Source: Rubricoccaceae bacterium (GTDB lineage: Bacteria > Bacteroidota > Rhodothermia > Rhodothermales > Rubricoccaceae). Taken from it: DNA of 30,349 bases. Where the stretch lies: contig JANPJI010000734.1 of assembly GCA_031425425.1 (NCBI GenBank), positions 1 through 30,349 on the forward strand, given 5' to 3'. Under the pieces are notes generated by a model. It had not been told where the DNA came from. It worked only from the letters and a program-made list of their open reading frames with translations, and ran no database searches. The translations under genes were made by a program, and so were the position numbers. The stretch's first letter is position 1; each line of letters begins with the position of its first letter. This document shows positions 7,764 through 24,836 of this stretch, piece by piece.

Positions 7764-9236
7764 TCAGCGCAGGCGCGCCGTGTAGCGGACGGTCGTCGTC
7801 TCGCCCGCGCCCATCCGGACGCTCCACTTCGCCGTCCGCGCGTCGAGGCGGTCCGGCTGAGCCGGCTGGCCATCCACGGTCGCCGCGGTGATGCGCCAGT
7901 CGCCCCAGAAGGCCCGCTCGACGACGTCGACGTCCGCCGCGGTCTCCTTTCGGTTGCGGACGACGATCTCGACCGTCACCTCGCGCTCGCGGTTCGAGAC
8001 CTGCCGCGCCGAGACCTCCGTGCGCGTCCCGACGACGTCGAACGCGTCGCCGACGTAGAGGCGGAGCGTCTCGCCGCGGGGCGTGTGCTCGATGCGGTCC
8101 TCGCCCAGAAACTGGAGGTTGCCCCGCGCGTCGGCTTTGTACACGCGCACGGTGCCCTCGGGGAGCGGCATGCCCATCCGGTTGGCGTCCGTGTTGTCCA
8201 CCGTCATCACGACGGCCGCCGAGCGCTCCTCGCCCGCCTCGCCCGGCCGGACGGGCCGGTAGAACGGGAAGTAGCTCCCCGAGGCGTCGATGACGAGGCG
8301 CCGGCTCGTGCCGACGGCCTGCGCCGAGAGCAGCTCCATCTGCTTCGTCTCGCGCTCGGCGATGTCGGTCGGGTTCGGAAACGTGTAGAGGTGGTACTCG
8401 AAGAAGGCCTCCTCCTGAGGGGCTGCCTGCGTTGCGACGGCGTCGTACATCGCGCGCTCCGCAGTGGGGGCGTACATCGGCGGCTCGGGCTGGACCCGGC
8501 GGACGTCGCCGGCGATGAGCTGGAGCGCGGCGTTCTGGTAGGACGCGCCGGACTGGTTGTTGAGCGTCACCCAGCCCGTGAGGTCAAGCGCCGTCTCGGC
8601 CTCGTTCACCACGGCCACGTAGTCCGCCTTCCACGAGATGCCCTCGGTGAGGTAGCGCGCCTCGAGGCGCTGCGGGCCTGCCACGTCGGACTGGAGTTGC
8701 CACAGCAGGCTCGGCCGCGACAGGAGTCCCTCGGGGAGCGTCGTCAACTCGATCGTGCCGTCGGGGTCCACGAGCACGCGGCCGTCGTCCAGGCGCACGA
8801 TGCGGCCCTGGCCCGGCTGCGAGATCAGCACACCCTCCTCAGCCACGACGCGGTCGCCGATCTGGCGCACGAGCCGGATCCGCTGGCCGACCGACGCGTC
8901 GAGCACGGACTGCGTCGAGATGAGGTTGTACTGGTAGTTCTGCTCGCGGACGGACACCGAGCCGGGGGCCGAGAGCGACGCCAGCGAGAGGCTCGTCGGG
9001 TCGATCTGCGACGGGACGCCCTCGAAGCGGACCGACACGAGCCCGCGCTGGAGCGGGATCGTGCGGACCTCGCGCACGACCGCAAAGCCTCCGTTGTAAA
9101 CGGTTAGGGAGGTGGATTCCCGGCTCTCGGGCGTCGACACGACGGGTTGGGCACGCGCGGACATGGCGGTGAGGGCGAGGGCAGCGAGAATCGCGGAGCG
9201 CCTCGCGAGACGCACGGCGGAACGGGTGGTGGGCAC
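7764..9236 (-). CDS. DUF4139 (with N-terminal DUF4140-like region) exported protein
   Basis: Signal peptide with an RR pair. Motifs LTVYNGGFAVVRE, EQNYQYNL, YLTEGISWKADY, LDLTGWVTLNNQSGASY, FFEYHLY and LPEGTVRVY are typical of this family. The exact start is uncertain. Confidence 0.8.
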   Translation of the reverse strand: MPTTRSAVRLARRSAILAALALTAMSARAQPVVSTPESRESTSLTVYNGGFAVVREVRTIPLQRGLVSVRFEGVPSQIDPTSLSLASLSAPGSVSVREQNYQYNLISTQSVLDASVGQRIRLVRQIGDRVVAEEGVLISQPGQGRIVRLDDGRVLVDPDGTIELTTLPEGLLSRPSLLWQLQSDVAGPQRLEARYLTEGISWKADYVAVVNEAETALDLTGWVTLNNQSGASYQNAALQLIAGDVRRVQPEPPMYAPTAERAMYDAVATQAAPQEEAFFEYHLYTFPNPTDIAERETKQMELLSAQAVGTSRRLVIDASGSYFPFYRPVRPGEAGEERSAAVVMTVDNTDANRMGMPLPEGTVRVYKADARGNLQFLGEDRIEHTPRGETLRLYVGDAFDVVGTRTEVSARQVSNREREVTVEIVVRNRKETAADVDVVERAFWGDWRITAATVDGQPAQPDRLDARTAKWSVRMGAGETTTVRYTARLR

Positions 9237-9429
9237 AGACAGGGGGGCTGGAGACGCCGGTGAGACGCTCCGGATGGTCCGGTTCGTACGTCCGGTTGCA
9301 ACCGGCTCCGCATCGCTCGCGTTCGTAGATTCGCCGGTACGCTCGTGCCACTCAACTCGATGTTGTCCGGCCAGAACGCGCGCTGTGGAACTTGCGTCCG
9401 AGAAGTGGACTAGGAGTTCACAGAGGCGG

Positions 9430-9461
9430 TTGACCCATTCCGCTCCCGTTCTCTACCTTTG
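9430..9461 (+). promoter_or_regulatory. Bacteroidota-type housekeeping promoter (TTG-N21-TACCTTTG)
   Basis: TTG at 9430-9432 and TACCTTTG at 9454-9461 fit the TTTG-N19-21-TAnnTTTG consensus, 44 nt before ATG 9506. Confidence 0.6.
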
Positions 9462-9505
9462 CGCGGTATCGTCCCCTCCCCCCGTTTCTCCTTTCAGGAC
9501 CCCTC

Positions 9506-10591
9506 ATGCTCAATGTGGCACTCGTAGGCCTGCTCGCCGGCTCGCTGGCGATCGGCGGCGGTGACAACAAGAATCCGCAGTCTGGCGACAAGCCCACTGC
9601 GGACGTCTCTGTCCCCGGCATCTTCACCCAGTCCGTCCTGGCTCCCCCGGCGGTCTCCCCCGAGACGATCCAGGACACCTACGCGTTCGGCATCGCGGCC
9701 CGTCAGTCCCCCATCCGTTTCTGGGCGAACTACGCGCAGGGTGAGGCCGAGTCCTACTGGAACACGGCTGGCGAGACGCCCAGCCCCCAGACTGACATCA
9801 CGATTGCGGGTTCGCAGGGCGTTCTCGTCGCACGCCGCGCCAACTTCGGTGCCGAGCTCGGCCTCCCGGTCGGCCTCTTCGGGTTCGGCCTCGGCGTCGG
9901 CGGCCAGCTCACGCTCGCCCAGAACAAGTTCGACGTCCAGACGGTCGGCCCGGCCGGTCTGCAGAGCATCCGGAGCGATTTCGGCCTCCAGGGCGCGAAG
10001 GTGTACGGCTCGGCCAGCGCCGGCCCGATCAGCCTCCACGGCGGCTACCTGTTCGACCTCGGCACCGAGCGCGAGTTCACGGAGCCGATCCCGGCCCTCG
10101 GCGGTGCTCGTCTGCCCACCACGCTGTCGACCTCTGACGGCCGCGACGCCATTTTCTTCGGTGCGGACTTCGACTACCCGTCGCCGCGCATCCGCCTCTT
10201 CGGCGGCCTGGACTACTACATGCTCCAGGGCATCGAGGACAACACGAACACGGCCTTCAACGAGTCGACAGAGGACGGCGACGACATCATGAACGCCATC
10301 CTCGGCGCGGGTGTCCGCCTGAGCATCTTCGAGATCGGCGCGGCGCTGCAGATCCAGACGCGCCTCAGCAACCCCATCGTCGCTGACATCGGCACGGTGC
10401 GCGGCGTCGGCAGCCACGCCGCGACGGTCGCCCCGTACCTCCGCATTTCGCCCCCGCAGATCCCGGCCTCGATCTTCGTCAAGGGCGCGGTTCAGGAGGA
10501 GTACACCGAGTTCGGCTACGCCCTCGGCGGTGCCAACTCGCCGAAGCCGGCCATTGGCTTCACGGCCGGCCTCACGGTCGGGTTCGAGTAA
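9506..10591 (+). CDS. Hypothetical exported protein, probable outer-membrane beta-barrel
   Basis: Hydrophobic N-terminal signal, many amphipathic Gly/aromatic strands (ISLHGGYLFDLG, IFFGADFDY, IRLFGGLDYY, ILGAGVRLSIFEIGAALQIQ) and a C-terminal strand ending TVGFE. It has its own promoter and terminator. Confidence 0.65.
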   Translation: MLNVALVGLLAGSLAIGGGDNKNPQSGDKPTADVSVPGIFTQSVLAPPAVSPETIQDTYAFGIAARQSPIRFWANYAQGEAESYWNTAGETPSPQTDITIAGSQGVLVARRANFGAELGLPVGLFGFGLGVGGQLTLAQNKFDVQTVGPAGLQSIRSDFGLQGAKVYGSASAGPISLHGGYLFDLGTEREFTEPIPALGGARLPTTLSTSDGRDAIFFGADFDYPSPRIRLFGGLDYYMLQGIEDNTNTAFNESTEDGDDIMNAILGAGVRLSIFEIGAALQIQTRLSNPIVADIGTVRGVGSHAATVAPYLRISPPQIPASIFVKGAVQEEYTEFGYALGGANSPKPAIGFTAGLTVGFE

Positions 10592-10616
10592 GCAGCCGGT
10601 CGTCTGACCGTCTCTG

Positions 10617-10656
10617 AGGGACCGCCCGGCACGTGTCGGGCGGTCCCTTTCGTTTT
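10617..10656 (+). terminator. Rho-independent terminator
   Basis: GGGACCGCCCG (10618-10628) pairs with CGGGCGGTCCC (10637-10647), followed by TTTCGTTTT. Confidence 0.85.
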
Positions 10657-10674
10657 CCACGCTCCCACACGCCC

Positions 10675-11322
10675 GTGCGCTCGGTCTGTCTCGCGGTCTC
10701 CCTCGGCCTGGCCGCGGCGTGTTTCGCCGGGTGCGCCCTGTCTCGGCAGCCCACGGCAGACAGCCGGATCGAAGCGGGGACGAGGCACCTCGCCGAGGCT
10801 CCGTCCGACAGCGCCCGCCGCGCCGTCACGCGGCACCTCCTCGCGTCCGCCGGCCTGACGCCTCTGGCCGGCGAGCGGTTCACGTTCGGCAGCCCCGAGG
10901 TCGTCGCCGGCTTCGTCCCCGGTCGGGTGCCGGTCGAGCGGGACACGCTCGTCGTCGTGGCCGCTGGCGGCGCGTCCGCGGCCGTCGTGGCCGAGGCGGC
11001 GCGGGCGCTCGTAGAGGCGGCGGCGCGGAACGAGGGCCCGGAGCGGAGCGTGCTCGTCGCGCTGTGGGAGCCGGGGCGGACCGCCGAGCAGGGCCTCGCG
11101 GACGTTCTGGCCTTCGGGCTCTGGCCGTCCGATGCCATCCGCGGCGTGCTCGTCGTGAACGCCGCGCTCGCGCCCGACGAACCGCCCGTCGCGTCGTTCG
11201 CGACCGGGACGCCCGATGGGGCCTCGGCGGCGGCGCTCGCTGCCCGGATCCGAGAGTTGGCCGCCCGGCCGGTGCGCTCCGACACGTCCGCCGCAGATCC
11301 AGCCTCTGTGCTTCTCAACTGA
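10675..11322 (+). CDS. Lipoprotein with a degenerate M28 peptidase-like fold
   Basis: Lipobox-like FAGC after a hydrophobic stretch. Segments VAGFVPGR...TLVVVAA and PERSVLVALWE resemble the M28 scaffold, but the HYD, DD and EE ligand motifs are absent. Start moved to GTG 10675 because 10633 lies inside the terminator. Confidence 0.55.
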   Translation: MRSVCLAVSLGLAAACFAGCALSRQPTADSRIEAGTRHLAEAPSDSARRAVTRHLLASAGLTPLAGERFTFGSPEVVAGFVPGRVPVERDTLVVVAAGGASAAVVAEAARALVEAAARNEGPERSVLVALWEPGRTAEQGLADVLAFGLWPSDAIRGVLVVNAALAPDEPPVASFATGTPDGASAAALAARIRELAARPVRSDTSAADPASVLLN

Positions 11323-12155
11323 TGCTCCCCGTTCTCGCCACCGACACCGTCACCGGAGACCTCGCCCGCGCGGTCGGGTACGCGCTCCTGTGGGGCCTCG
11401 AAGGCGTCGCGCTGCGGACGGTCGGCGGCGAGCGCGTGCCGTTCGTGAACGAGGCCGTCCTCCGGCGTCGCCTCGCGGACGACGAGCTTCCCCTCGCTGC
11501 CGTCGACCCGGGCTTGTTCGAGGGCTCCGCGGCGGACCGGGCCGTGTGGCTCAACGACGTCGCCGCGTTCGACGACACCGCGGCGTTCTGCCGGCGCCTC
11601 GGGTGCGGGATCGTCCGTGTCGGCGCGCTCGGCGGCGGGGGTGAGCCTGCCGACCGCGTCGCGGCGCTGCGCGCGCTCGGAGACTCCGCGGCCCGGCACG
11701 GGCTGCGCCTCGCCGTACGCAACGAGTCCGGGACGGCCGTGGCGACGGGTGCCGGCCTCGCCGGCCTCCTCGCGGAGGTCGCACACCCGGCCGTCGGGGC
11801 CGACTGGCAGCCTCTGGAGGCATTCCGCACGGGCGAAGCCGTGCTCGACGGGCTCGACGCGCTCCTCGCCCTCGGCGGTGGTGCCGTCGCCTGCGTCGCC
11901 GTCGTGGATGAGGTCCCGGCCGACGACGGTGTGCTCGTGGACGCGGTCGTCGGGGAGGGCGTGCTCGCGTGGGCGGACCAGCTCGCGCGCCTCGCCGCAG
12001 CTGGCTATACCGGTCCGCTCGTGCTCGCCATTCCCGGCCGGCCGACGGGCGCAGCGGGCCTGTCGTCGGCGAGCGCGCTCGTCCGGCTGGCCCGCGCCGC
12101 CGTCCGAGCCGCGCGTGCGCCGAGTGGTGCGGGTCGGACAGGGGCGGCTCCGTGA
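11322..12155 (+). CDS. Xylose isomerase-like/AP endonuclease 2 TIM-barrel protein (sugar phosphate isomerase/epimerase family), metal ligands apparently lost
   Basis: ATG 11322 overlaps the upstream TGA. The pattern GLEGVALR...FCRRLGCGIVRV...LGDSAARHGLRLAVRNE...HPAVGADW...LAAAGYTGPLVL follows this family. Confidence 0.65.
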   Translation: MLPVLATDTVTGDLARAVGYALLWGLEGVALRTVGGERVPFVNEAVLRRRLADDELPLAAVDPGLFEGSAADRAVWLNDVAAFDDTAAFCRRLGCGIVRVGALGGGGEPADRVAALRALGDSAARHGLRLAVRNESGTAVATGAGLAGLLAEVAHPAVGADWQPLEAFRTGEAVLDGLDALLALGGGAVACVAVVDEVPADDGVLVDAVVGEGVLAWADQLARLAAAGYTGPLVLAIPGRPTGAAGLSSASALVRLARAAVRAARAPSGAGRTGAAP

Positions 12156-12931
12156 CAGACACCGCCGCCTCCACGCCTGCGGACCCGGCGGTCCGGGCCG
12201 AGCCGCCGCGGCCGACGTGGGCGGCGCACCTGTGGTTCGTGTGGGTCGCGTTCTGGGCGGTCGTCGGTTGCCTCGTGTTCAGCCCTGGCCTGGTGCTTCA
12301 CTCGGCGTTCCGGCCGACGGCCCGGACGTTCGTGACGTGGATGCGCCCGTGGAGCCGGTCTGTTCTCTTCATGATCGGCGTGCGCGCGCGCGTCGAGATC
12401 CGCGCGCCGCTGCCGGCGGGGCCGGTCGTGTTCGTCGCCAACCACCAGAACTCTGCGGACATCCTCGCGACGTCTGCGTGCCTGCCGCGGCCATTCGTGT
12501 ACGTCGCCCGGCACGAGCTGCGGTCGTGGCCCATCGTCGGGTGGGTGCTCGAGAAGTCGGCGTGCCTGTTCATCGACCGCTCGACCCCGCGTCGTGCGAT
12601 CGAGAGCCTCCGCGAGGCCGGCGTGCGGATCCGCGGCGGTGAATCTGTCCTGCTGTTCCCCGAGGGCGGGCGGAGCTACCGGCACCACACCGAGCCGTTC
12701 ATGCGCGGGTCGTTCATGCTCGCCGTCGAAGCCGGCGTCCCCGTCGTGCCGGTGACGCTCGTGGGCCACGTCGGCGTGATCGACGAGAAGGCGCGCACGG
12801 CGCGGCGGGGCGAGACGCGGGTCATCCTCGGCGTGCCCGTCGAGACGGCGGGAATGAGCCGGAGCGACGCCGCCGCGCTGAGCGACCACGTCCGAGCGAC
12901 GATCGAGGCCGAGCTGTCGCGGTTCGGGTAA
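12152..12931 (+). CDS. plsC: 1-acyl-sn-glycerol-3-phosphate acyltransferase
   Basis: Catalytic NHQNSAD (NHx4D), LFIDR and LLFPEGGRS motifs, plus an N-terminal TM helix. GTG 12152 overlaps the upstream stop (GTGA). Confidence 0.88.
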   Translation: MTDTAASTPADPAVRAEPPRPTWAAHLWFVWVAFWAVVGCLVFSPGLVLHSAFRPTARTFVTWMRPWSRSVLFMIGVRARVEIRAPLPAGPVVFVANHQNSADILATSACLPRPFVYVARHELRSWPIVGWVLEKSACLFIDRSTPRRAIESLREAGVRIRGGESVLLFPEGGRSYRHHTEPFMRGSFMLAVEAGVPVVPVTLVGHVGVIDEKARTARRGETRVILGVPVETAGMSRSDAAALSDHVRATIEAELSRFG

Positions 12932-13003
12932 GGGAACCGGGGATCCGCGTCGGGGCCGGTCGGGTGCCGTCGGTATCTTTTGCGTCCCGCCCGACACCCC
13001 GAA

Positions 13004-15604
13004 ATGGCAAAGCCACCGAAGAGCCGTCCCACCCCCGCACGGCCCGCGCCGCTCGCCGGCAACGACGGCTGGAAGCGCCGGAGCCGCGTCCGCGCGACTG
13101 GCCCCGTCCTCCGCGGCGAGGCGTCCGTGTGGGACCGGCTGCCGGACTGGGCGCAGCACGCCGTCTGCATCGGGTTCCTGCTCGTCGTCGCCGTCGGCTT
13201 CTTCTGGCCGACGACGTTCGGCGGCAAGGCGTTCGCCGGCGGCGACACGGTCCAGTGGCGCGCGACGGCCCAGGCGATGCAGGCGTACGAGGCCGAGACC
13301 GGCGACGCGGCGCTGTGGGCACCCAACGTGTTCGGTGGGATGCCCGGCTACCTCGTCTCGTACCCCACGCGCGTGCCCGGCGCGGACACCGTGGTCACGG
13401 CGCTGCGCGGGCTCGGGCTGTGGCCCGTCGCGCACTTCTTCGTGCTGTTGCTCGGGACGTACCTGCTGTCCGTCTTCCTCACGCGGTCCAAGTTGCCGGG
13501 CGTCGTCGCGGCGGTCGGCTTCGGGCTCTCGGCGTACCTCCCGATCATCCTCACCGCCGGCCACAACACCAAGTACGTCGCCCTCGCGTACGCGCCGTGG
13601 CTGCTGCTTGCCTTCGCCGGCGTGATCCGGCGCGAGCCCGGCACGAAGCGGATGAAGAGCATCTTCCTGACGCTCCTCTTCGCCATCGCCGCGGCGACGA
13701 ACCTGCGGGCGGGGCACGTCCAGATCACGTACTACGTCGTGGTGATCGCGGGCGTGTGGTGGATCGCCGAGGGCGTCTCCGCCTTCCGCGGCAAGACGCT
13801 CAGGACGTTCGCGTTCTCGACGGGCCTTCTCGTGGCCGGGGCCGTGCTGGGCCTCGCCCTCGTGGCGCAGCCGTACCTCGCGCAGTGGGAGTTCAAGCCG
13901 TTCACGACGCGCGGCGCGAGCGAGGGCGGCGGCCTCGCGTGGGACTACGCGATGCAGTGGAGCCAGGGCTGGGGCGAGCTGCTCACGCTCGTCATCCCGA
14001 ACGCGTACGGCGGCGGCGGACCGCTCTACTGGGGTCCTAAGGTGTTCACCGCCGGTCCCCACTACCTCGGTCCGGTGATCCTGCTGCTGGCCCTCATCGG
14101 GGCCGTCGGCGTGGCGCGGCGCTCGGTGTTCGCCTTCTGGCTGTCCGCGTTGCTGATGTCGGCGTTCGCGCTCGGCGAGCACTTCGAGCTGCTCAACCGG
14201 CCCGCCTTCGCGGCCCTGCCGCTGTTCAGCACGTTCCGCGTGCCCGAGACGTGGCTCGCCGCCGTCGCGCTGGTCGTGGCGCTTCTGGCGGGGTGGGGCG
14301 CGTACTACCTCCAGCGCCGCGAGGCGACGCCCGAGGCCGAGGCGCGCAAGACGCGCGTCGCCGGCGGGGCCGCCGCCGCGTTCGTGTTGCTCGTCGGTGG
14401 GCTGTGGATCACCGGCGGGGCAGGGCTCTCGTTCGAGAAGCCCGGCGAGGCGGAGCAGGTCGCCCAGGCCGTGGCCGCGCAGGCGGCCGAGGCGGGGCTC
14501 CCGCCCACGGACCCGCAGGTCGCGCAGGCCGCCACCCAGTACCTCGGCCAGATCCGGGCGGACCGCGTCGCCGCATTCTCATCCGACGCCGGCCGGTCGA
14601 TGCTCTTCCTCGCGCTCGCGTGTGCCTGCGTGGCGCTGCTCGTGACGCGCCGCGCGCCGGCGTTCGTCGCCCTCGGGGCGCTCGCGCTCCTCGCCACGGC
14701 CGACCTGTGGGGCGTCGGCCGGCGGTTCGTCTCCGACGACTCGCCGTCGCTCGTGCGCCGCCGCGCCGCCACGGCTGCGCCGCTGAGCGGGGCCGACACG
14801 TTCCTCGCCGAGCGCGCGCGCGCCGCCGGGCCGGGCACCTTCCGCGTGCTCCCCCAGAACCCGCTCTCGACGGCGGGTCCGTCTGCCTACGCCGAGTCCG
14901 TCGGCGGCTACAACGGGGTCCGCCTCGCCGCCTTCGAGGACTACCTCACCGAGACGCTCCCGGACTCGGCGACGGGCTACAACCGCAACGCGCTCCGCCT
15001 GCTGGCCGTCCGCTACGTCGTCGCGCAGGGTGTGGTGCCGGGGCTCGCGCCGGTGTACCAGGACCCGCAGACGGGCCAGGTCGTCTCCGAAGACGCGTCG
15101 GCCGCACCGCGGGCGTACCTCGTCGACCGCGTCGAGGTGGTGCCGGACGCGGCGGCGATGCGCGCGCGCGTCCGGAGCCTGCAGACCGACCTCGAGCGGG
15201 TCGCGTTCGTCTCGGCCGAGGTGCCGGGCGTCTCGGCCGCCGCCCTCTCCGGAGCTGCGCCCGACTCCGCCGGGACGTCCGTCGAACTCGACCGCTACCG
15301 GCCCGACGAGATCGTGTGGCGGGTCCGCTCGGACCGGCCGCGCCTGTTCGTCGCCTCGGAGGTGTACTACCCGGCCGGGTGGACGGCCCGCGTCGGCGAG
15401 GCGGACGCGCCGATCGTGGCGGTGGACGGGCTCGTCCGCGGCGTGCCCGTCCCGCGGGGCGAGAGCCTCGTCACGATGACGTTCCGCCCCGAGACGCACC
15501 GCACGAGCGTCATCGTCTCGTGGATCGCGTTCGTGCTCGCCTACGGCGGCGCGCTCGGGCTCGGCGGGCTGCTCTGGCTCCGCCGCGGCAAGCACCCGGC
15601 GTGA
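13004..15604 (+). CDS. YfhO-family multi-pass membrane protein (GT-C type glycosyltransferase)
   Basis: ALWAPNVFGGMPGYL, GHNTK, HVQITYY, WDYAMQWSQG, YWGPKVFTAGPHYLG, FSTFRVPETW, SVGGYNG and SEVYYPAGW, with many TM helices. Start at ATG 13004. Confidence 0.82.
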   Translation: MAKPPKSRPTPARPAPLAGNDGWKRRSRVRATGPVLRGEASVWDRLPDWAQHAVCIGFLLVVAVGFFWPTTFGGKAFAGGDTVQWRATAQAMQAYEAETGDAALWAPNVFGGMPGYLVSYPTRVPGADTVVTALRGLGLWPVAHFFVLLLGTYLLSVFLTRSKLPGVVAAVGFGLSAYLPIILTAGHNTKYVALAYAPWLLLAFAGVIRREPGTKRMKSIFLTLLFAIAAATNLRAGHVQITYYVVVIAGVWWIAEGVSAFRGKTLRTFAFSTGLLVAGAVLGLALVAQPYLAQWEFKPFTTRGASEGGGLAWDYAMQWSQGWGELLTLVIPNAYGGGGPLYWGPKVFTAGPHYLGPVILLLALIGAVGVARRSVFAFWLSALLMSAFALGEHFELLNRPAFAALPLFSTFRVPETWLAAVALVVALLAGWGAYYLQRREATPEAEARKTRVAGGAAAAFVLLVGGLWITGGAGLSFEKPGEAEQVAQAVAAQAAEAGLPPTDPQVAQAATQYLGQIRADRVAAFSSDAGRSMLFLALACACVALLVTRRAPAFVALGALALLATADLWGVGRRFVSDDSPSLVRRRAATAAPLSGADTFLAERARAAGPGTFRVLPQNPLSTAGPSAYAESVGGYNGVRLAAFEDYLTETLPDSATGYNRNALRLLAVRYVVAQGVVPGLAPVYQDPQTGQVVSEDASAAPRAYLVDRVEVVPDAAAMRARVRSLQTDLERVAFVSAEVPGVSAAALSGAAPDSAGTSVELDRYRPDEIVWRVRSDRPRLFVASEVYYPAGWTARVGEADAPIVAVDGLVRGVPVPRGESLVTMTFRPETHRTSVIVSWIAFVLAYGGALGLGGLLWLRRGKHPA

Positions 15605-18664: not shown

Positions 18665-20166
18665 TGCTCAAGCGCCTCTTCCAGCAGAGCGGCATCTACA
18701 CGCTCGCGAGCGTCGTCGGCAAGGCCAGCGGCTTCGTCGTGACGCTGTATTACGTGGACCCGGCGTACCTCTCGAAGGCCGACTTCGGGACGTTCGACTA
18801 CCTCCTGTCCGTCCTGATGATCGCGCTCCTCGTCGCCGGGGCGGGCCTGCCGCTGGGGATCCTGCGGTTCGCGACGTCGCGTGAGGTCCCCGAGGCGGAG
18901 CGCGCGGCGGTCCCGGCGACGGCCCTGCTCATCGCGTTCGTCGCCTCGGCAGCCGTCGCGTGCGCGGCGTGGATCGGGGCACCGGCCCTCGCCGAGGTTC
19001 TGCTCCGCGACGCCTCGCGGGCCGGGCTCGTCCGCACGCTCGCGCTCTACATCGTCTGCAAGACCGTTGCCGACGTAGCCTACCAGGAGCTGCGCCGCCG
19101 CGAGCGGCCGGGCTTGTACGTCGCCATGACCGCGGCCGAGATGCTGCTCCAGACGGCGGCCGTGGTCGTGTTCCTCGTCGTGTTCCGGCTCGGGCTCGCC
19201 GGGATCCTCTACGGCTACCTCGCCGCAGCGGCGGTCCTGGCGACGGTCTCGACGGGCGTGCTGCTGGCGCGGGTCGAGCGGCGCGTGAGCTGGGCGCTCG
19301 TGCGCCCGATGATCGTGTTCGGGCTGCCGCTCGTCGTGTCCGGCATGGCCGGGCGGTTCCTGTACGCCGGCGACCGGTTCGTCATCCTGCACTTTCTGAC
19401 GCCCGACGACAACGCGGTCTACGCGTGGGCGTCGCGGTTCGGCGGGCTCGTCAACGCGTTCCTGGTGCAGAGCTTCCAGCTGGCGTTCACCGTCCTCGGC
19501 CTCCAGGCGCTCGGCGACGGTGGCGCGCCGGCCCTCCACCGGCGCGCGTTCCGGCACTTCTCCGTCGTCGCCGGCTTCGCCGTGCTCGGGCTGGCCCTGT
19601 TCGTGGACGACGTGAGCCGGGTCGTGACGCCGGACCCCGACTACGCGCGCGTCTCGGGGCTCGTGCTGCTCATCGCCGGCGGATTCGGGTGGTACGGGCT
19701 GTACTTCGTGACCGTCAACGTGCTCTTCGCCGCGGGGCGGACGCGCGCGGTCGCCGTGGCCGTCGGCGCGGCGGCGGCGCTCAACGCCGGGCTCAACTGG
19801 GTGCTCGTGCCGCGCTACGGCATCGCCGGGTCCGCCTTTTCGACGCTCGTCGCCTACGTCGCGCTGTCGGTCTGGACGGGCGTCTCGGCGGAGCGCATCA
19901 GCCGGGCGAACTACCCGTGGCGCGTGCCCGTGCTGCTGTCCGCCCTCGTCGGCGGGCTGTGGGCGGTGGGCGTCCCGACGGCCGCGTGGCCACTCGCCGA
20001 GCGCCTCGCGGCGCGGGCGGCCCTGCTGGCGCTGTACGTGCCCGCCCTGCTGGCCCTCGGCGTGTATGGCCGGGCGGACGTCGACGCGGGGCGGGGGGCC
20101 GTCCGGGCGTTCCAGGCGCGCCGCGCGGGCGTCAACGCGCCTCCCGAGGACGCCGAGGCGCGTTGA
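18664..20166 (+). CDS. Wzx-like oligosaccharide flippase (MOP superfamily)
   Basis: ATG 18664 overlaps the upstream TGA. About 12-14 TM segments; [37 protein letters not shown] and [19 protein letters not shown]. Confidence 0.85.
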
Positions 20167-20190
20167 CGCCTCGGGCCCCGGTGCTAGATT
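20163..20190 (+). promoter_or_regulatory. Sigma70-like promoter for the BMC operon
   Basis: TTGACG (20163-20168), a 16-nt spacer, then TAGATT (20185-20190) with an extended TG at 20182-20183, 84 nt before ATG 20275. Confidence 0.5.
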
Positions 20191-20274
20191 GCCCGCCCGG
20201 CCCCCGCCGACGTGCGGACCCCGCACGGCGCGACCCGCGCGCGCGGCGGCCTCCACCTCTCTAGAGCAGTTCCC

Positions 20275-20559
20275 ATGGCAACAGGAGATTCCGGTTCCGC
20301 CCTCGGCATGGTCGAGACGAAGGGCCTCATCGGCGCGATCGAGGCGGCGGACGCGATGGTCAAGGCGGCCCGCGTGACGCTCATCGGCAAGGAGCAGATC
20401 GGCGGCGGCTACGTCACCGTGATGGTCCGCGGCGACGTCGGCGCGGTCAAGGCGTCCACGGACGCGGGCGCGGCGGCGGCCGAGCGCGTCGGCGAACTCG
20501 TCTCGGTGCACGTCATCCCGCGGCCGCACGCCGAAGTCGAGCACATCCTCCCGGGCTGA
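20275..20559 (+). CDS. Bacterial microcompartment hexameric shell protein (BMC-H, EutM/PduA/CcmK type)
   Basis: [43 protein letters not shown] and [10 protein letters not shown]; 94 aa from ATG 20275. Confidence 0.95.
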
Positions 20560-20562
20560 CCC

Positions 20563-21156
20563 ATGGCCGACCGCCTGCCCGGCCTCGGCGGGGCCCCCAT
20601 CCCGCCCGGCTCCGCGCTCGGCCTCGTCGAGACGTTCGGGCTCGTTGCCGCCATCGAGGCGGCGGACGCAATGCTGAAGGCGGCCGACGTCCGGCTCGTC
20701 CGCAAGCACCGCGTCGACCCGGGCATGATCTCGCACATCGTCGTCGGCGAGACGGCGGCCGTGCAGGCGGCCGTCGATGCGGGCGTAGCCGCGGCGCAGC
20801 GCGTGGGCAAGGTCTTCGGCTCGCTCGTGATCCCGCGCCCGGCCGACGACGTGTGGCAGAAGATGCTGGGCGTCCCGCTCGCGTCCGACACCGCTCCCGA
20901 CGCCTCGGGGGCGGACAGCCCGGCTCTGCTGCGGCTCGCCTCGTCGCCGGCTCCCCGCGCCGCGGCACCCCGCGCCGCGGCACCCCGCGCCGTGGACGCG
21001 TCGGCCCCGCCGGACCGCGACTACGACGCGATGACGGTCCGCGACCTCCGGGCGCTGGCCCGCGAGCGCGCGGACATCGCCCTCCAGGGCCGGGCCGTCG
21101 CCGCGGCCTCGAAAGACGACCTCGTCGCCGAGCTGCGCGCCGCGGACGCCCGATGA
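20563..21156 (+). CDS. BMC-H shell protein with low-complexity linker and C-terminal helical domain (PduK/EutK-like architecture)
   Basis: [35 protein letters not shown] and LVIPRP, followed by a (PRAAA)n linker and [16 protein letters not shown]...[10 protein letters not shown]. Confidence 0.9.
20953..20992 (+). repeat. In-frame 15-bp tandem repeat (about 2.7 copies) encoding PRAAA
   Basis: CCCCGCGCCGCGGCA at 20953 and 20968, with a partial copy at 20983. Confidence 0.85.
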
Positions 21157-22139
21157 GCCCGTTCGCCACGGGCAGCGCCGCTTCCGGCGGTGCGGCCCCC
21201 GGGGCGCGGTCGCGGCCGAACCCGACCGCGATGGCGCTCTCGCTCGTCGTCGCCGTGGGCCTGTGGTTCTCGTTCAGCATGCGCGAGACGTACACGGTCG
21301 CCGTGCCGGTGACGCTCCGCGTGGCCGGCGTGCCGGAGGGGCAGGCCCTGAGCGCCCGCCCGCCCGCGACGGCGAGCGCGACGTTCCGCGGCGAGGGCTG
21401 GAAGCTGCTGCTCCTCTCCCGGTCGGCCCCCGTCGTCCCACTCTACGCCGACGCGGCGTCCGTCGACCTCGAACGCGCCGTCGCGGCGTCGGGCCTCCCG
21501 CCGGGCGTGGACGTCCAGAGCGTCCGCCCCCGGACGGCCCGGCTCGCGCTCGACCGCCAGGTCCGCCGCCGCGTCCCGATCCGGCTCGTCAGCGACATCC
21601 GGCCCGTGCCGTCGTTCGGGCTGCTCCGCCCGCCGCGCCTGCTGCCGGACTCGGTGACGGTGACGGGTGCCGCCCGCCTCGTCGCCGCGCTCGACGCGTG
21701 GCCGACCGAGCGCCTCGACGCCGCAGACGTCCGCGATCCGCTGACGATGACCGTCGCGCTCCGGGACACGCTGGCGGGCCTCGTCACAGTGTCCGCCCGC
21801 ACCACGACGGTCCAGATCCCCATCGCCGAGTTCACCGAGGGCGTCCGGACGCTCCGCGTCCGCGTCGTCAACGTCCCCCGCGGGATCGCCGGAGTTCGGA
21901 CCGAGCCTGCGCGCGTCCGCGCGACGTACCGGGTCCCGCTGACCGCGGACGACCTCTACGGGCAGGCCCAGACGGCAGCGGGCTTCGTCGCCGTGGTCGA
22001 CTACCGCGACATCGCCCGCGACACCACGTCGGGCACGGTCGCGGTCGCTGCGCGCGTCCCCGCCGGCCTCGACGTCCGCGACGTGGCGCTCGCGCCCTCG
22101 CGCGTCGAGTACTTCCTGGTCCGCCGCGCGGCCCCCTGA
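21153..22139 (+). CDS. YbbR/CdaR-like domain protein with N-terminal membrane anchor
   Basis: ATG 21153 overlaps the BMC stop (ATGA). A TM segment ([14 protein letters not shown]) is followed by beta-rich repeats: [41 protein letters not shown] and EFTEG. Confidence 0.75.
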
Positions 22140-22164
22140 CTCCTCACCGCCGCCGCGACCTCGC

Positions 22165-23097
22165 ATGGGATTTCTGTTTCTCGCCGTGGCGTGCAGCCTC
22201 GGCATCGCGACCGTCTTCAAGCTCGCCGAGCGGCGGGACTTGGACCGGACGGCGCTGCTGGCCGTCAACTACGCCGCGGCGGCCGTGCTCGCGCTCGTCC
22301 TCCAGGGGGCCGACGTGGCCGCTCTCTCCGGCGTCGCACCGGGGGCGGTCGCGCTCGGGGTGCTGCAGGGCGTGCTGTTCATCGGCGGCTTCTGGCTGTT
22401 CTCGCTCGCGATCCGCAGGGCCGGGATCGGGCTCGCCGCGGGTGCGATGCGCCTCTCGGTCGTCGTCCCGGTCGTCGCGTCGTGGGCGATCTGGGCCGAG
22501 GTGCCGACGGTCGCGCAGGGCCTCGGGCTGGCCCTCGCCGGCGTCGCGTTCGTGCTCGTCGCCCGGCCGTCCGGTGCGCACGCGCCAGGCGGGACCGTCG
22601 CCGGTGAGATGCCCGCCGCGACGGCCGCGGCCGACGGCCTCCCGGGAAGCCCCACGCCGCGGCGCGCGGGCAACCTCGTGCTCCTGCTCGGGCTCCTCTT
22701 CGTCTCCGGCGGGCTCGTCGACGTGGTGATGAAGGCGTTCCAGAAGGGCTACGCCGCCACCGTCCCCACTCCGACGTTCCTGCTGGTCGTCTTCGCGGTC
22801 GCGTTTACGGTGGGCACGGCCGCCGTGGTCGCAACGGGCGTCCGGACCGGCCGCTGGCCCGGCGTGGCCGTCGTCGGCTGGGGCGTCGGGCTGGGGATCA
22901 TCAACTACGGCTCGGCCGAGTTCTTTCTGCGCGCGGTCGGCGCGCTTCCGGCCCCCGTCGCGTTCCCGTTGAACAGCGTCTCGATCGTTCTCGGCGCGGC
23001 CCTGCTCGGGCGCCTCGTGTGGGGCGAGACGCTCTCGCGGGCCAACCTGGCAGGGCTCGCGCTCGCCGCCGTCGCCGTCGCCCTGCTTGCCGGCTAA
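22165..23097 (+). CDS. EamA/DMT family transporter
   Basis: About ten TM helices in two repeats; LLAVNYA, RAGIGLA, INYGSAEFFLRAV, FPLNSVSIVLGA and WGETLSRAN. Confidence 0.88.
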   Translation: MGFLFLAVACSLGIATVFKLAERRDLDRTALLAVNYAAAAVLALVLQGADVAALSGVAPGAVALGVLQGVLFIGGFWLFSLAIRRAGIGLAAGAMRLSVVVPVVASWAIWAEVPTVAQGLGLALAGVAFVLVARPSGAHAPGGTVAGEMPAATAAADGLPGSPTPRRAGNLVLLLGLLFVSGGLVDVVMKAFQKGYAATVPTPTFLLVVFAVAFTVGTAAVVATGVRTGRWPGVAVVGWGVGLGIINYGSAEFFLRAVGALPAPVAFPLNSVSIVLGAALLGRLVWGETLSRANLAGLALAAVAVALLAG

Positions 23098-23119
23098 CCT
23101 CCGCCTGTCCCTCGGACCC

Positions 23120-23845
23120 GTGCCCGACTCGTCTCCCGCCCCTCCGCCCGCGGCACCCGCCCGCCGCTCGAATCCGCTCGGCGCGGTCGTCGGCTTTGTG
23201 CTGGCGGTCGCGCTCGTGCTGGCCGCCGTCGGCTCGTTCGTGTGGTCGCTGGTGCCGCGGATCACCGAAGAGACGGTTCAAACGGCCGTCTGGACGGCTA
23301 TCCAGCGCGAGGTGCCGGACGAGTTCCTCGTCGTCGGCACGCTCGACATGACGACGGTGACGCGTACCGACCGCGTGACGCGCCTCCTTCCCGGCCTCCT
23401 GGATCTGGAGACGGGCCGGACCACGACCCGGATGCGCGTTCCGGGCCGGGTGAGCTACGGGTTCAACCTTCGGGCGCTCCAGCCGCGGGACATCCGCTAC
23501 CTGCCCGAAGGAGTGGTCGTGGTGACGCTCCCGCCCCTGGCGGTCTCCTCGGTGGAGCCGGTCCTCGAAGACATTCAGGTCGAGATCGACCGCGACCGGT
23601 GGCAGTCTCTGATGCCCGGCTTCGACGAGGGGACGTTCCGGTCCGCCCTGGCGCCGGTCCGCCCCGCTCTCCGCGCGAGGGCCGAGGCGTACGTCGCCAG
23701 CAACGCGCAGCCGAAGCGCAACGCCGCTCGGGCCGTCGAGCGGATGATTGCGACGCCGCTCGCGGCGGCCGGCGTACGCGACGCTCGGTTCCGCTTCGTC
23801 GTCGCCCCCGGCGACACGCTGGAGGGCAGCCGCGGAGACCGGTAG
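23120..23845 (+). CDS. DUF4230-like membrane-anchored protein
   Basis: Single N-terminal TM, then RVPGRVSYGFNL and VVVTLPPLAVSS, which fit this family. Start placed at GTG 23120. Confidence 0.65.
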   Translation: MPDSSPAPPPAAPARRSNPLGAVVGFVLAVALVLAAVGSFVWSLVPRITEETVQTAVWTAIQREVPDEFLVVGTLDMTTVTRTDRVTRLLPGLLDLETGRTTTRMRVPGRVSYGFNLRALQPRDIRYLPEGVVVVTLPPLAVSSVEPVLEDIQVEIDRDRWQSLMPGFDEGTFRSALAPVRPALRARAEAYVASNAQPKRNAARAVERMIATPLAAAGVRDARFRFVVAPGDTLEGSRGDR

Positions 23846-24407: not shown

Positions 24408-24836
24408 ATGGAGACCAACGACACACGCGACGGAGACGCCGCGGAGGAGACCGGCTTCGGGGCCGGCACGCCCGCGCCGCAGAACGCCGCCGACCCGACG
24501 CAGGTCGAGCAGATCCAGAACGAGCCGCCGCCGCGCGCCGTGAGCCCCGAGATGGCGGCCACGCTCAAGGCCGCCTCGAACCCGGACGACCTCCAGCGCA
24601 TCGCCGCGCCGGGCGCGGACCACATCAAGCTCAAGGACCCCTTCAAGGCCGCGGGCATCGAGTACATCGACTACAAGGATGTCGACACGCTCAAGCGCTA
24701 CGTGAACGAGCAGGGCAAGATCCTGCCGGGCCGCATGTCCGGCGTCTCGGCCAAGTTCCAGCGCCAGCTCACGACGGCGATCAAGCGGGCCCGCCACGTG
24801 GCGCTGCTCCCGTACGTCGCCGACAACGTCAAGTAG
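24408..24836 (+). CDS. rpsR: 30S ribosomal protein S18 (Cys-free, zinc-independent type) with long N-terminal extension
   Basis: [27 protein letters not shown] and [20 protein letters not shown]; position between rpsF and rplI. Confidence 0.95.

Follow-up and report, generated by a model that had tools for sequence, protein, structure and literature searches.

A BMC-H gene pair of a Rubricoccaceae bacterium that probably encodes the hexamers of an SPU-like deoxyribose-phosphate metabolosome with fully dispersed genes

The window analyzed here, i.e., the whole stretch of 30,349 nucleotides from a Rubricoccaceae bacterium (assembly GCA_031425425.1, positions 1 to 30,349 of contig JANPJI010000734.1, hereafter C734; GC content approximately 75%), contains two adjacent genes for hexamer-type shell proteins of bacterial microcompartments (BMC-H), which are the subject of this report. 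The first gene of this H-H pair, BMC-H1 (20275-20559, + strand; PF00936, E=1.8e-29), encodes 94 aa, and the second, BMC-H2 (20563-21156, + strand; PF00936, E=4.7e-25), encodes 197 aa and begins 3 nt behind it. BMC-H2 shares an ATGA overlap of 4 nt (21153-21156) with the gene of a YbbR-domain membrane protein (21153-22139, + strand; 328 aa, PF07949 with 23.0 bits against a cut-off of 22.3), which has a single N-terminal hydrophobic span. This is followed after 25 nt by an EamA/DMT-family transporter (22165-23097, + strand; 310 aa, PF00892) and, after a further 22 nt, by a DUF4230 protein (PF14014, + strand), which starts with GTG at 23120 or with TTG at 23087 and ends at 23845, so that all five genes lie close together on the same strand.

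The five genes are flanked upstream by a polysaccharide flippase (Polysacc_synt, PF13440/PF01943; 18751-20166, + strand), which marks the upstream border of the slot occupied by the H-H pair, and downstream by rpsF-rpsR-rplI. A candidate sigma-70-like promoter, identified by its match to the consensus only (TTGACG-16-TAGATT with a TG; 20163-20190, + strand), overlaps the stop codon of the flippase, and BMC-H1 starts 85 nt downstream of it; this is the sole promoter-like match between 20000 and 24200, where shuffled sequences predict 0.0. The first-pass annotation of this DNA had described the promoter-like site, the two BMC-H genes and the spacing of the genes, as well as the setting between a glycan locus and a ribosomal protein operon, and all these features are found where it had placed them.

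The two shell proteins differ in their architecture. BMC-H1, which shares 80-98% identity with the leading members of H-H pairs in genomes with a GC content of 29% to 77%, is the standard hexamer and probably the main facet protein. BMC-H2 comprises a BMC domain with a divergent loop, a Pro/Ala linker (residues ~105-150) and, at the C-terminus, a domain of three helices (residues 151-197, window 21013-21153, + strand), the latter seen in the AlphaFold model, in which the BMC domain has a pLDDT above 90, the linker is below 50, i.e., disordered, and the C-terminal domain reaches 94-98. The C-terminal domain is conserved across 32 sequences.

The whole-genome search for PF00936 and PF03319, which the first-pass annotation had suggested, returned only two PF00936 genes in the source genome, BMC-H1 and BMC-H2, and three PF03319 genes for pentamer-type shell proteins (BMC-P), all above the cut-off. 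The BMC-P genes form a tandem pair (P-P) on contig C627 and a single third gene on contig C75 (2438-2734), and there is no trimer-type shell protein (BMC-T) in the genome. No profile match to PF03319, PF00171 or PF06130 was found on C734, and the description of the locus as minimal, with neither pentamer nor cargo, thus stands for the window, but not for the genome, in which the three BMC-P and enzymes of the BMC type are located on other contigs. BMC-H1, BMC-H2 and the three BMC-P are the set needed for a closed shell, with the corner proteins and the enzymes found at six or more further places in the genome.

The distribution of these genes was followed in 41 Rhodothermales genomes, including the source genome, of which 30 have the H and/or the P genes (“shell-bearing”) and 11 have neither (“shell-less”), with the H genes of the latter being sought by tblastn at E<1e-4. 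The H pair is present in 28/41 genomes and BMC-P in 29/41, the two sets coincide except in three incomplete genomes assembled from metagenomes (MAGs), and exactly three BMC-P genes are found in 26 of the 29 genomes that have any.

This arrangement matches the written description of FRAG1, an already catalogued type of fragmented BMC that encodes shell proteins only (Sutter, Melnicki, Schulz, Woyke, Kerfeld 2021, Nat Commun 12:3809, PMC8217296, Supplementary Data 2), and whose members come from Ignavibacteria, Kryptonia, Bacteroidetes and Chlorobi, together with a few Rhodothermaeota, among them Rubricoccus SG-29. The catalogue entry has no matches to encapsulation peptides (PMC8217296), and the FRAG-type microcompartments have been described as enigmatic, their function being open since 2021. 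As in FRAG1, the shell genes are scattered (H-H on C734, P-P on C627 and P on C75), there is no enzyme gene beside them, the BMC-P form a triplet, here represented by three PF03319 genes, and one standard hexamer (H1, 94 aa) is accompanied by one with an ordered C-terminal domain (H2, 197 aa). The neighbours of the shell genes that were tested are housekeeping genes, present in 38-40 of the 41 genomes irrespective of the shell. The source genome differs from FRAG1 in the absence of the PduS/PduT pair, as it has two PF00936 genes only, and in the co-occurrence of the shell with three unlinked enzymes that bear terminal extensions, whereas the catalogued type has shell proteins only. Given this, the idea that the locus is a satellite of a dispersed, unclassified Rhodothermota BMC is borne out in its first part, since the three BMC-P lie on C627 and C75 and co-occur with the H genes, but the type is not unclassified. 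Neighbouring YbbR or deoB genes are not mentioned in the parts of the catalogue’s text and supplements that were available (PMC8217296), and the literature search found no later paper that mentions FRAG1.

The first of the three enzymes is the deoxyribose-phosphate aldolase (DERA), DeoC, which in the source genome is encoded on contig C655 and has 279 aa (272 bits to the deoC equivalog), including an N-terminal extension of 61 aa. Counted with a profile of the extension alone, and with a match required beside the DeoC core, this extension is present in 29/30 shell-bearing genomes, the sole miss being a gene cut by a contig end, and in 0/11 shell-less genomes, in which DeoC either starts at the core or belongs to a different subfamily. 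All ten shell-bearing genomes that were inspected have the extension of ~61 aa, for which Pfam gives no family. The pattern is repeated within a single genus (g7), where genome G012 has the shell and a DeoC extension of 68 aa, and G020 lacks the shell, with its DeoC core preceded by a stop codon at a distance of 18 aa. By direct inspection, the DeoC of four other families with FRAG1-like loci also have 65-75 extra residues, with an amphipathic helix first and then a Cys-rich stretch.

The second enzyme is an RpiB-family (PF02502) ribose-5-phosphate isomerase (RPI), found in 29/30 shell-bearing and 0/11 shell-less genomes. The copy in the source genome, on contig C79, has a conserved N-terminal domain of ~65 aa with only weak matches, to eut_hyp (TIGR02536), the EutQ N-terminus and PDU_like, and its alignment reads “DGVG” in the place of the canonical “CGTG”, i.e., the catalytic Cys is replaced by Asp. 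The third is a CoA-acylating aldehyde dehydrogenase (AldDh; PSTNPT motif), encoded in the source genome on contig C287 (3-1622) with its 5' end cut off, and present in 28/30 shell-bearing against 0/11 shell-less genomes, a count whose absences are softer than the others, given that the AldDh profiling used a stricter first filter. The C-terminal tail of this enzyme, which would act as an encapsulation peptide, has two helices that are conserved across six families (nine genomes).

The gene of the phosphopentomutase DeoB (equivalog-level match) is also associated with the shell, being present in 29/30 shell-bearing against 5/11 shell-less genomes, and it lies upstream of the P-P pair, on the same strand, in all the Rhodothermales loci with enough sequence, either directly adjacent, as in G028, or at a distance, as in G034 (167 nt). 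Outside this order, deoB is directly upstream of P-P in 5/5 genomes of families f40 and f53 and in 1/2 of family f44, with ~770 nt between them in the other f44 genome. The shell thus tracks with extended DeoC, Asp-type RpiB and tailed AldDh at unlinked loci, which is new relative to the FRAG1 catalogue. The dispersal can be followed in G013, a complete genome in a single contig, in which all seven loci lie on one chromosome, with deoB at 0.032 Mb, P-P at 0.036 Mb, H-H at 0.396 Mb, DeoC at 1.02 Mb, the third BMC-P at 1.38 Mb (1.376 Mb), AldDh at 2.95 Mb and RpiB at 2.99 Mb.

Some minor features of these enzyme genes were also recorded. The motif MV..GA.RFG of the DeoC extension resembles the segment MI..GA.RLGAS of the C-terminal strand and helix of DeoC itself (L213:2062-2247 in G029 and L216:1698-1880 in the source genome), which hints that part of the protein may have been duplicated internally, or that an element of the barrel may have been swapped. 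The gene conserved downstream of extended DeoC in Rhodothermales, f44 and f59 (L210-L216, L225-L228, L232) is lipoprotein-like, with ~180 aa and, as recognized by eye, a signal peptide and a Cys lipobox. As for the truncated AldDh gene, the end of contig C335 (1-213) is a 100% match to the first 71 residues encoded on C287, and the two contigs probably join at this point.

One BMC type that uses a deoxyribose-phosphate aldolase is that of sugar phosphate utilization (SPU), which reportedly goes back to Axen in 2014. The SPU BMCs have been characterized (Commun Biol 2024, 7:1562, PMC11585597), and their loci are the only ones among BMCs in which DERA and RPI are found. All the SPU DERAs have an N-terminal extension of ~70 aa that is absent from other DERAs, all the SPU RPIs have an encapsulation peptide and Asp in the place of Cys66, and the AldDh of SPU6 has a C-terminal encapsulation peptide (PMC11585597). 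By definition, the type has three or more BMC-P as well, of which two are always adjacent and a third is elsewhere (PMC8217296). The source genome resembles the SPU type in each of these features, with a DERA (PF01791, deoC equivalog) that has an N-terminal extension of ~60-70 aa, an N-terminally extended protein of the RpiB family in which Asp likewise replaces the catalytic Cys, an acylating AldDh that, like the one of SPU6, ends in a C-terminal tail, and two adjacent BMC-P with the third apart. It differs in that the SPU enzymes cluster with the shell genes, whereas here DeoC (C655), RpiB (C79) and AldDh (C287) are all unclustered, and in the tail domain of BMC-H2, which is a FRAG1 trait. 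Fragmented loci were excluded from the 2024 study of SPU (PMC11585597), and a link between FRAG1 and the SPU cargo is drawn neither in that paper nor in the catalogue (PMC8217296), as far as the available parts of the two sources go.

From the co-occurrence and these published SPU features, we infer that an SPU-type cargo set, made up of the extended DeoC, the Asp-type RpiB, the tailed AldDh and also DeoB, is encoded at further unlinked loci of the source genome. We consider it likely, with good confidence, that the H-H pair supplies the hexamers of an SPU-like metabolosome for deoxyribose phosphate, whose genes are fully dispersed in the layout of FRAG1, and that the membrane genes behind it are bystanders. 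In such an organelle, BMC-H1 would be the bulk tile of the shell and BMC-H2 a minor tile, whose flexible tail would bear a Rho_N/HeH-like domain. DeoB would make deoxyribose 5-phosphate from nucleoside breakdown, and this product would enter the shell, where DERA would split it into glyceraldehyde 3-phosphate and acetaldehyde, the latter being converted to acetyl-CoA by the co-packaged AldDh, with no PduL-type phosphotransacylase taking part. The Asp-type RpiB may be mainly a packaging partner of DERA, as has been proposed for SPU, and the terminal extensions would target the enzymes to the shell.

This reading offers a testable answer to the question of the FRAG1 cargo in Rhodothermales, given that the signature SPU enzymes come and go with the shell. 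If it is true, FRAG1 is the fully dispersed form of the SPU compartment for the recycling of DNA sugars, and a bacterial organelle can persist as a scattered regulon instead of an operon. The joint loss of terminal extensions with the shell is, moreover, an approach that may be used to assign cargo in other fragmented types.

Several points weigh against the SPU-like reading. The encapsulation of the enzymes is itself deduced from co-occurrence and sequence features, and a complex prediction that combined three copies of BMC-H1 with the DeoC extension yielded no verdict, so that it speaks neither for nor against binding. The Rhodothermales profile of the DeoC extension has no match in five FRAG1-like genomes of other families. 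The genomes are related and thus not independent, with approximately three clearly separate lineages of loss (genus g5, G020 in g7 and the families outside f1), the source genome is a MAG of 783 contigs that is 83% complete, and the AldDh absences are the softer ones mentioned above. Finally, the PduL-type phosphotransacylase (PTAC, PF06130) was found neither in the Rhodothermales genomes (0/41) nor in the complete FRAG1-like genomes of other families (0/4). Several SPU subtypes also lack PTAC, but these PTAC-less loci usually carry a BMC-T(dp), which provides an exit route for acetyl-CoA (PMC11585597), whereas the source system has neither BMC-T nor PTAC.

The dispersed shell might, on the other hand, serve another or an unrecognized pathway, e.g., a PVM-like catabolism of fucose or rhamnose, with the co-occurrence of DERA, RPI and AldDh reflecting shared ecology or ancestry. 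Phyletic co-occurrence among related genomes is possible without any physical association, and a FRAG1 BMC-H bears the label “PVMlike” in the HMM set of Sutter et al. (PMC8217296). In family f34, from the same phylum, a homologous H-H(CTD)-YbbR group, in which CTD stands for the C-terminal domain of the second hexamer, is the satellite of a PVM-like main locus in which the BMC-P triplet is found (P-P-P, PTAC, AldDh, a third BMC-H, class II aldolase and acetate kinase; L176 (G265:C4) 8875-14209 and L183 (G091:C45)). The H-H(CTD) cassette thus serves shells whose enzymes differ from one lineage to another, and it is on account of this use with other enzymes in f34 that a very small share of probability is kept on a cargo other than that of SPU, i.e., we regard this explanation as very unlikely in Rhodothermales. 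Neither the class II aldolase nor the PTAC of f34 was found by tblastn in the source genome (the PF00596 family as such was not searched), PTAC was found in 0/41 genomes of the order, and the co-variation with the shell covers the extensions and not only the genes, even within one genus in the case of DeoC (G012 against G020). The same features of DERA and RPI have, in addition, been reported only from SPU loci among BMCs (PMC11585597).

The membrane genes behind the H-H pair have a history of their own. The YbbR ortholog is a single-copy gene in 38/41 genomes and is kept in 10/11 of the shell-less ones, and, in nine shell-less genomes, the order of flippase, YbbR, EamA and/or DUF4230 is intact, with only the H-H pair missing from the gap between flippase and YbbR. 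The order is thus flippase-H-H-YbbR in most shell-bearing Rhodothermales and flippase-YbbR in their shell-less relatives, i.e., ybbR is found either behind the BMC-H pair or behind the flippase. Since the same order is kept in the absence of the shell, the membrane genes are read as bystanders, and YbbR, EamA and DUF4230 are conserved housekeeping neighbours rather than components of the organelle, although they are probably co-transcribed with the H-H pair, which sits between the promoter region and ybbR. EamA and DUF4230 follow YbbR only within Rhodothermales, and were not found beside the H-H pair outside this order.

The first-pass annotation had gone further, proposing a shell module coupled to three membrane proteins with a membrane-associated, non-metabolosome role. 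In a strict version of this proposal, sheets or tubes of BMC-H1 and BMC-H2 would work with EamA and DUF4230, with no pentamers or enclosed enzymes. BMC-H proteins alone can form sheets and tubes, the five genes are closely packed on one strand, and the 30-kb window has no gene for a pentamer or an enzyme; the genome, however, has three BMC-P that co-occur with the H pair across the relatives, EamA and DUF4230 persist where the shell genes are missing and are unlinked to them outside Rhodothermales, and the DERA, RPI and acylating AldDh that co-occur with the shell each have an extension of the targeting type. Such a module is therefore highly improbable, and a false lead is removed, in that the membrane genes beside the H-H pair are not part of the organelle.

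The adjacency of the H-H pair to ybbR, in particular, extends far beyond Rhodothermales. H-H-YbbR is found on the same strand in all the assessable Rhodothermales loci and in 22 of the ~45 assessable Bacteroidota loci outside the order (GC 29%-62%), belonging to families f30, f31, f34, f40, f44, f53 and f59 and to named Ignavibacteria MAGs, with a gene upstream that varies across the families. The comparison of gene order that had been suggested beforehand thus extends the YbbR part of the linkage to Ignavibacteria, whereas the EamA and DUF4230 part ends at the border of the order. YbbR is not downstream of H-H in f32, f36, f37, f50, f52 and f65, i.e., in approximately half of the loci outside the order, where the genes found instead, as judged by eye, are Sua5-like in f52 and f37, convergent and bactofilin-like in f36, and pdxJ-like in f50. 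The H-H-YbbR adjacency is old, and adjacency without co-dependence does not demonstrate partnership.

A functional unit of the H-H pair and YbbR, in which the synthesis or placement of the shell would be coupled to a YbbR/CdaR-type protein for envelope or cyclic di-AMP (c-di-AMP) signalling or for membrane tethering, would explain why the adjacency has lasted for so long. Gene order conserved over long distances often marks operons of interacting products, and here the order persists from Rhodothermales to Ignavibacteria at GC contents of 29%-77% while the upstream gene changes, with BMC-H2 and ybbR overlapping by 4 nt in the source genome. We nevertheless judge this unit unlikely, as YbbR stays at the same place behind the flippase in nearly all the shell-less genomes and is missing behind H-H in about half of the loci outside the order. 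In addition, the YbbR domains of the characterized CdaR proteins lie outside the cytoplasmic membrane, and the N-terminal tail that precedes the membrane span of YbbR is short and not conserved, which leaves little to touch a cytoplasmic shell. A neutral lock-in also accounts for the pattern and fits what is seen, i.e., once the H-H pair separated ybbR from its promoter, loss of the pair would be tolerated only as a precise deletion. No paper that ties the YbbR family to bacterial microcompartments was found in the literature.

CdaR, the YbbR protein of Firmicutes, is a regulator of the diadenylate cyclase CdaA. The YbbR protein of the window, for which no NCBIfam match was found, resembles CdaR in its N-terminal membrane span followed by YbbR-domain repeats, and differs from it in that its gene is not adjacent to cdaA, which in the source genome lies on contig C148 with folP and pcm, unlinked to H-H and ybbR (the copy of a relative has the DAC and CdaA_N domains). 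A link to c-di-AMP through a split cdaA-ybbR context was considered because P-P is convergent to folP-cdaA-pcm in several Rhodothermales families and H-H is beside ybbR, and was rejected, given that there is no cdaA near P-P in other families and that cdaA is unlinked in the source genome. As observations in their own right, folP-cdaA-pcm is a conserved trio, seen in convergent orientation to P-P in several families of the order (L074, L076, L080, L082), and the cdaR-like ybbR is unlinked to cdaA in the source lineage.

The tail of BMC-H2 allows for a further possibility. All five of the C-terminal domains searched (5/5) have Rho_N/SAP matches in Pfam, all of them sub-threshold, and the Foldseek search of the PDB returned two Rho entries only, with 42-44 residues aligned and a TMq of 0.57-0.60, which are non-significant, and in which we take the aligned part to be the N-terminal domain of Rho. 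The modelled domain is thus tentatively considered Rho_N/HeH-like. EutK is a BMC-H with a C-terminal helix-turn-helix domain, and BMC-H2 is similar to it in having an extra small helical domain behind a linker, but its domain weakly resembles Rho_N/SAP (HeH) rather than the fold of EutK, with sub-threshold Pfam matches and a TMq of ~0.6. The FRAG1 hexamer with a C-terminal domain has been likened to EutK by Sutter et al. (PMC8217296). If both the long-lived co-transcription of H-H with ybbR and the tail of BMC-H2 are functional, this tail might anchor the organelle on nucleic acid or on a partner close to the membrane, with the synthesis of the shell tied to the envelope pathway of YbbR. We find this unlikely, although, if it were true, FRAG1 would be a spatially positioned, regulon-encoded organelle and not a free-floating metabolosome.

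The surroundings of the third BMC-P were also surveyed. In 9/9 Rhodothermales loci (L071-L085, L087), the single BMC-P is directly downstream of an AAA ATPase of ~600 aa (PF00004, with no NCBIfam name), which in the source genome is found on contig C75 (3109-5139), and it is often near a class I fructose-bisphosphate (FBP) aldolase and a DAO oxidoreductase. The AAA ATPase (40/41 genomes) and the class I FBP aldolase (38/41) were rejected as cargo, given that both are present independently of the shell, and, together with YbbR, they serve as controls without the shell-linked pattern.

Two minor observations lie apart from these subjects. One Bacteroidota genome has two standard BMC-H followed by a BMC-P (G387:C1:3214500-3222500, L195), which is probably another BMC type. 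In the window itself, rpsR (24408-24836) encodes an S18 protein of 142 aa with a long, acidic and Pro-rich N-terminal extension, and this long form has 86% identity, across all 142 residues, to the copy of a congener.

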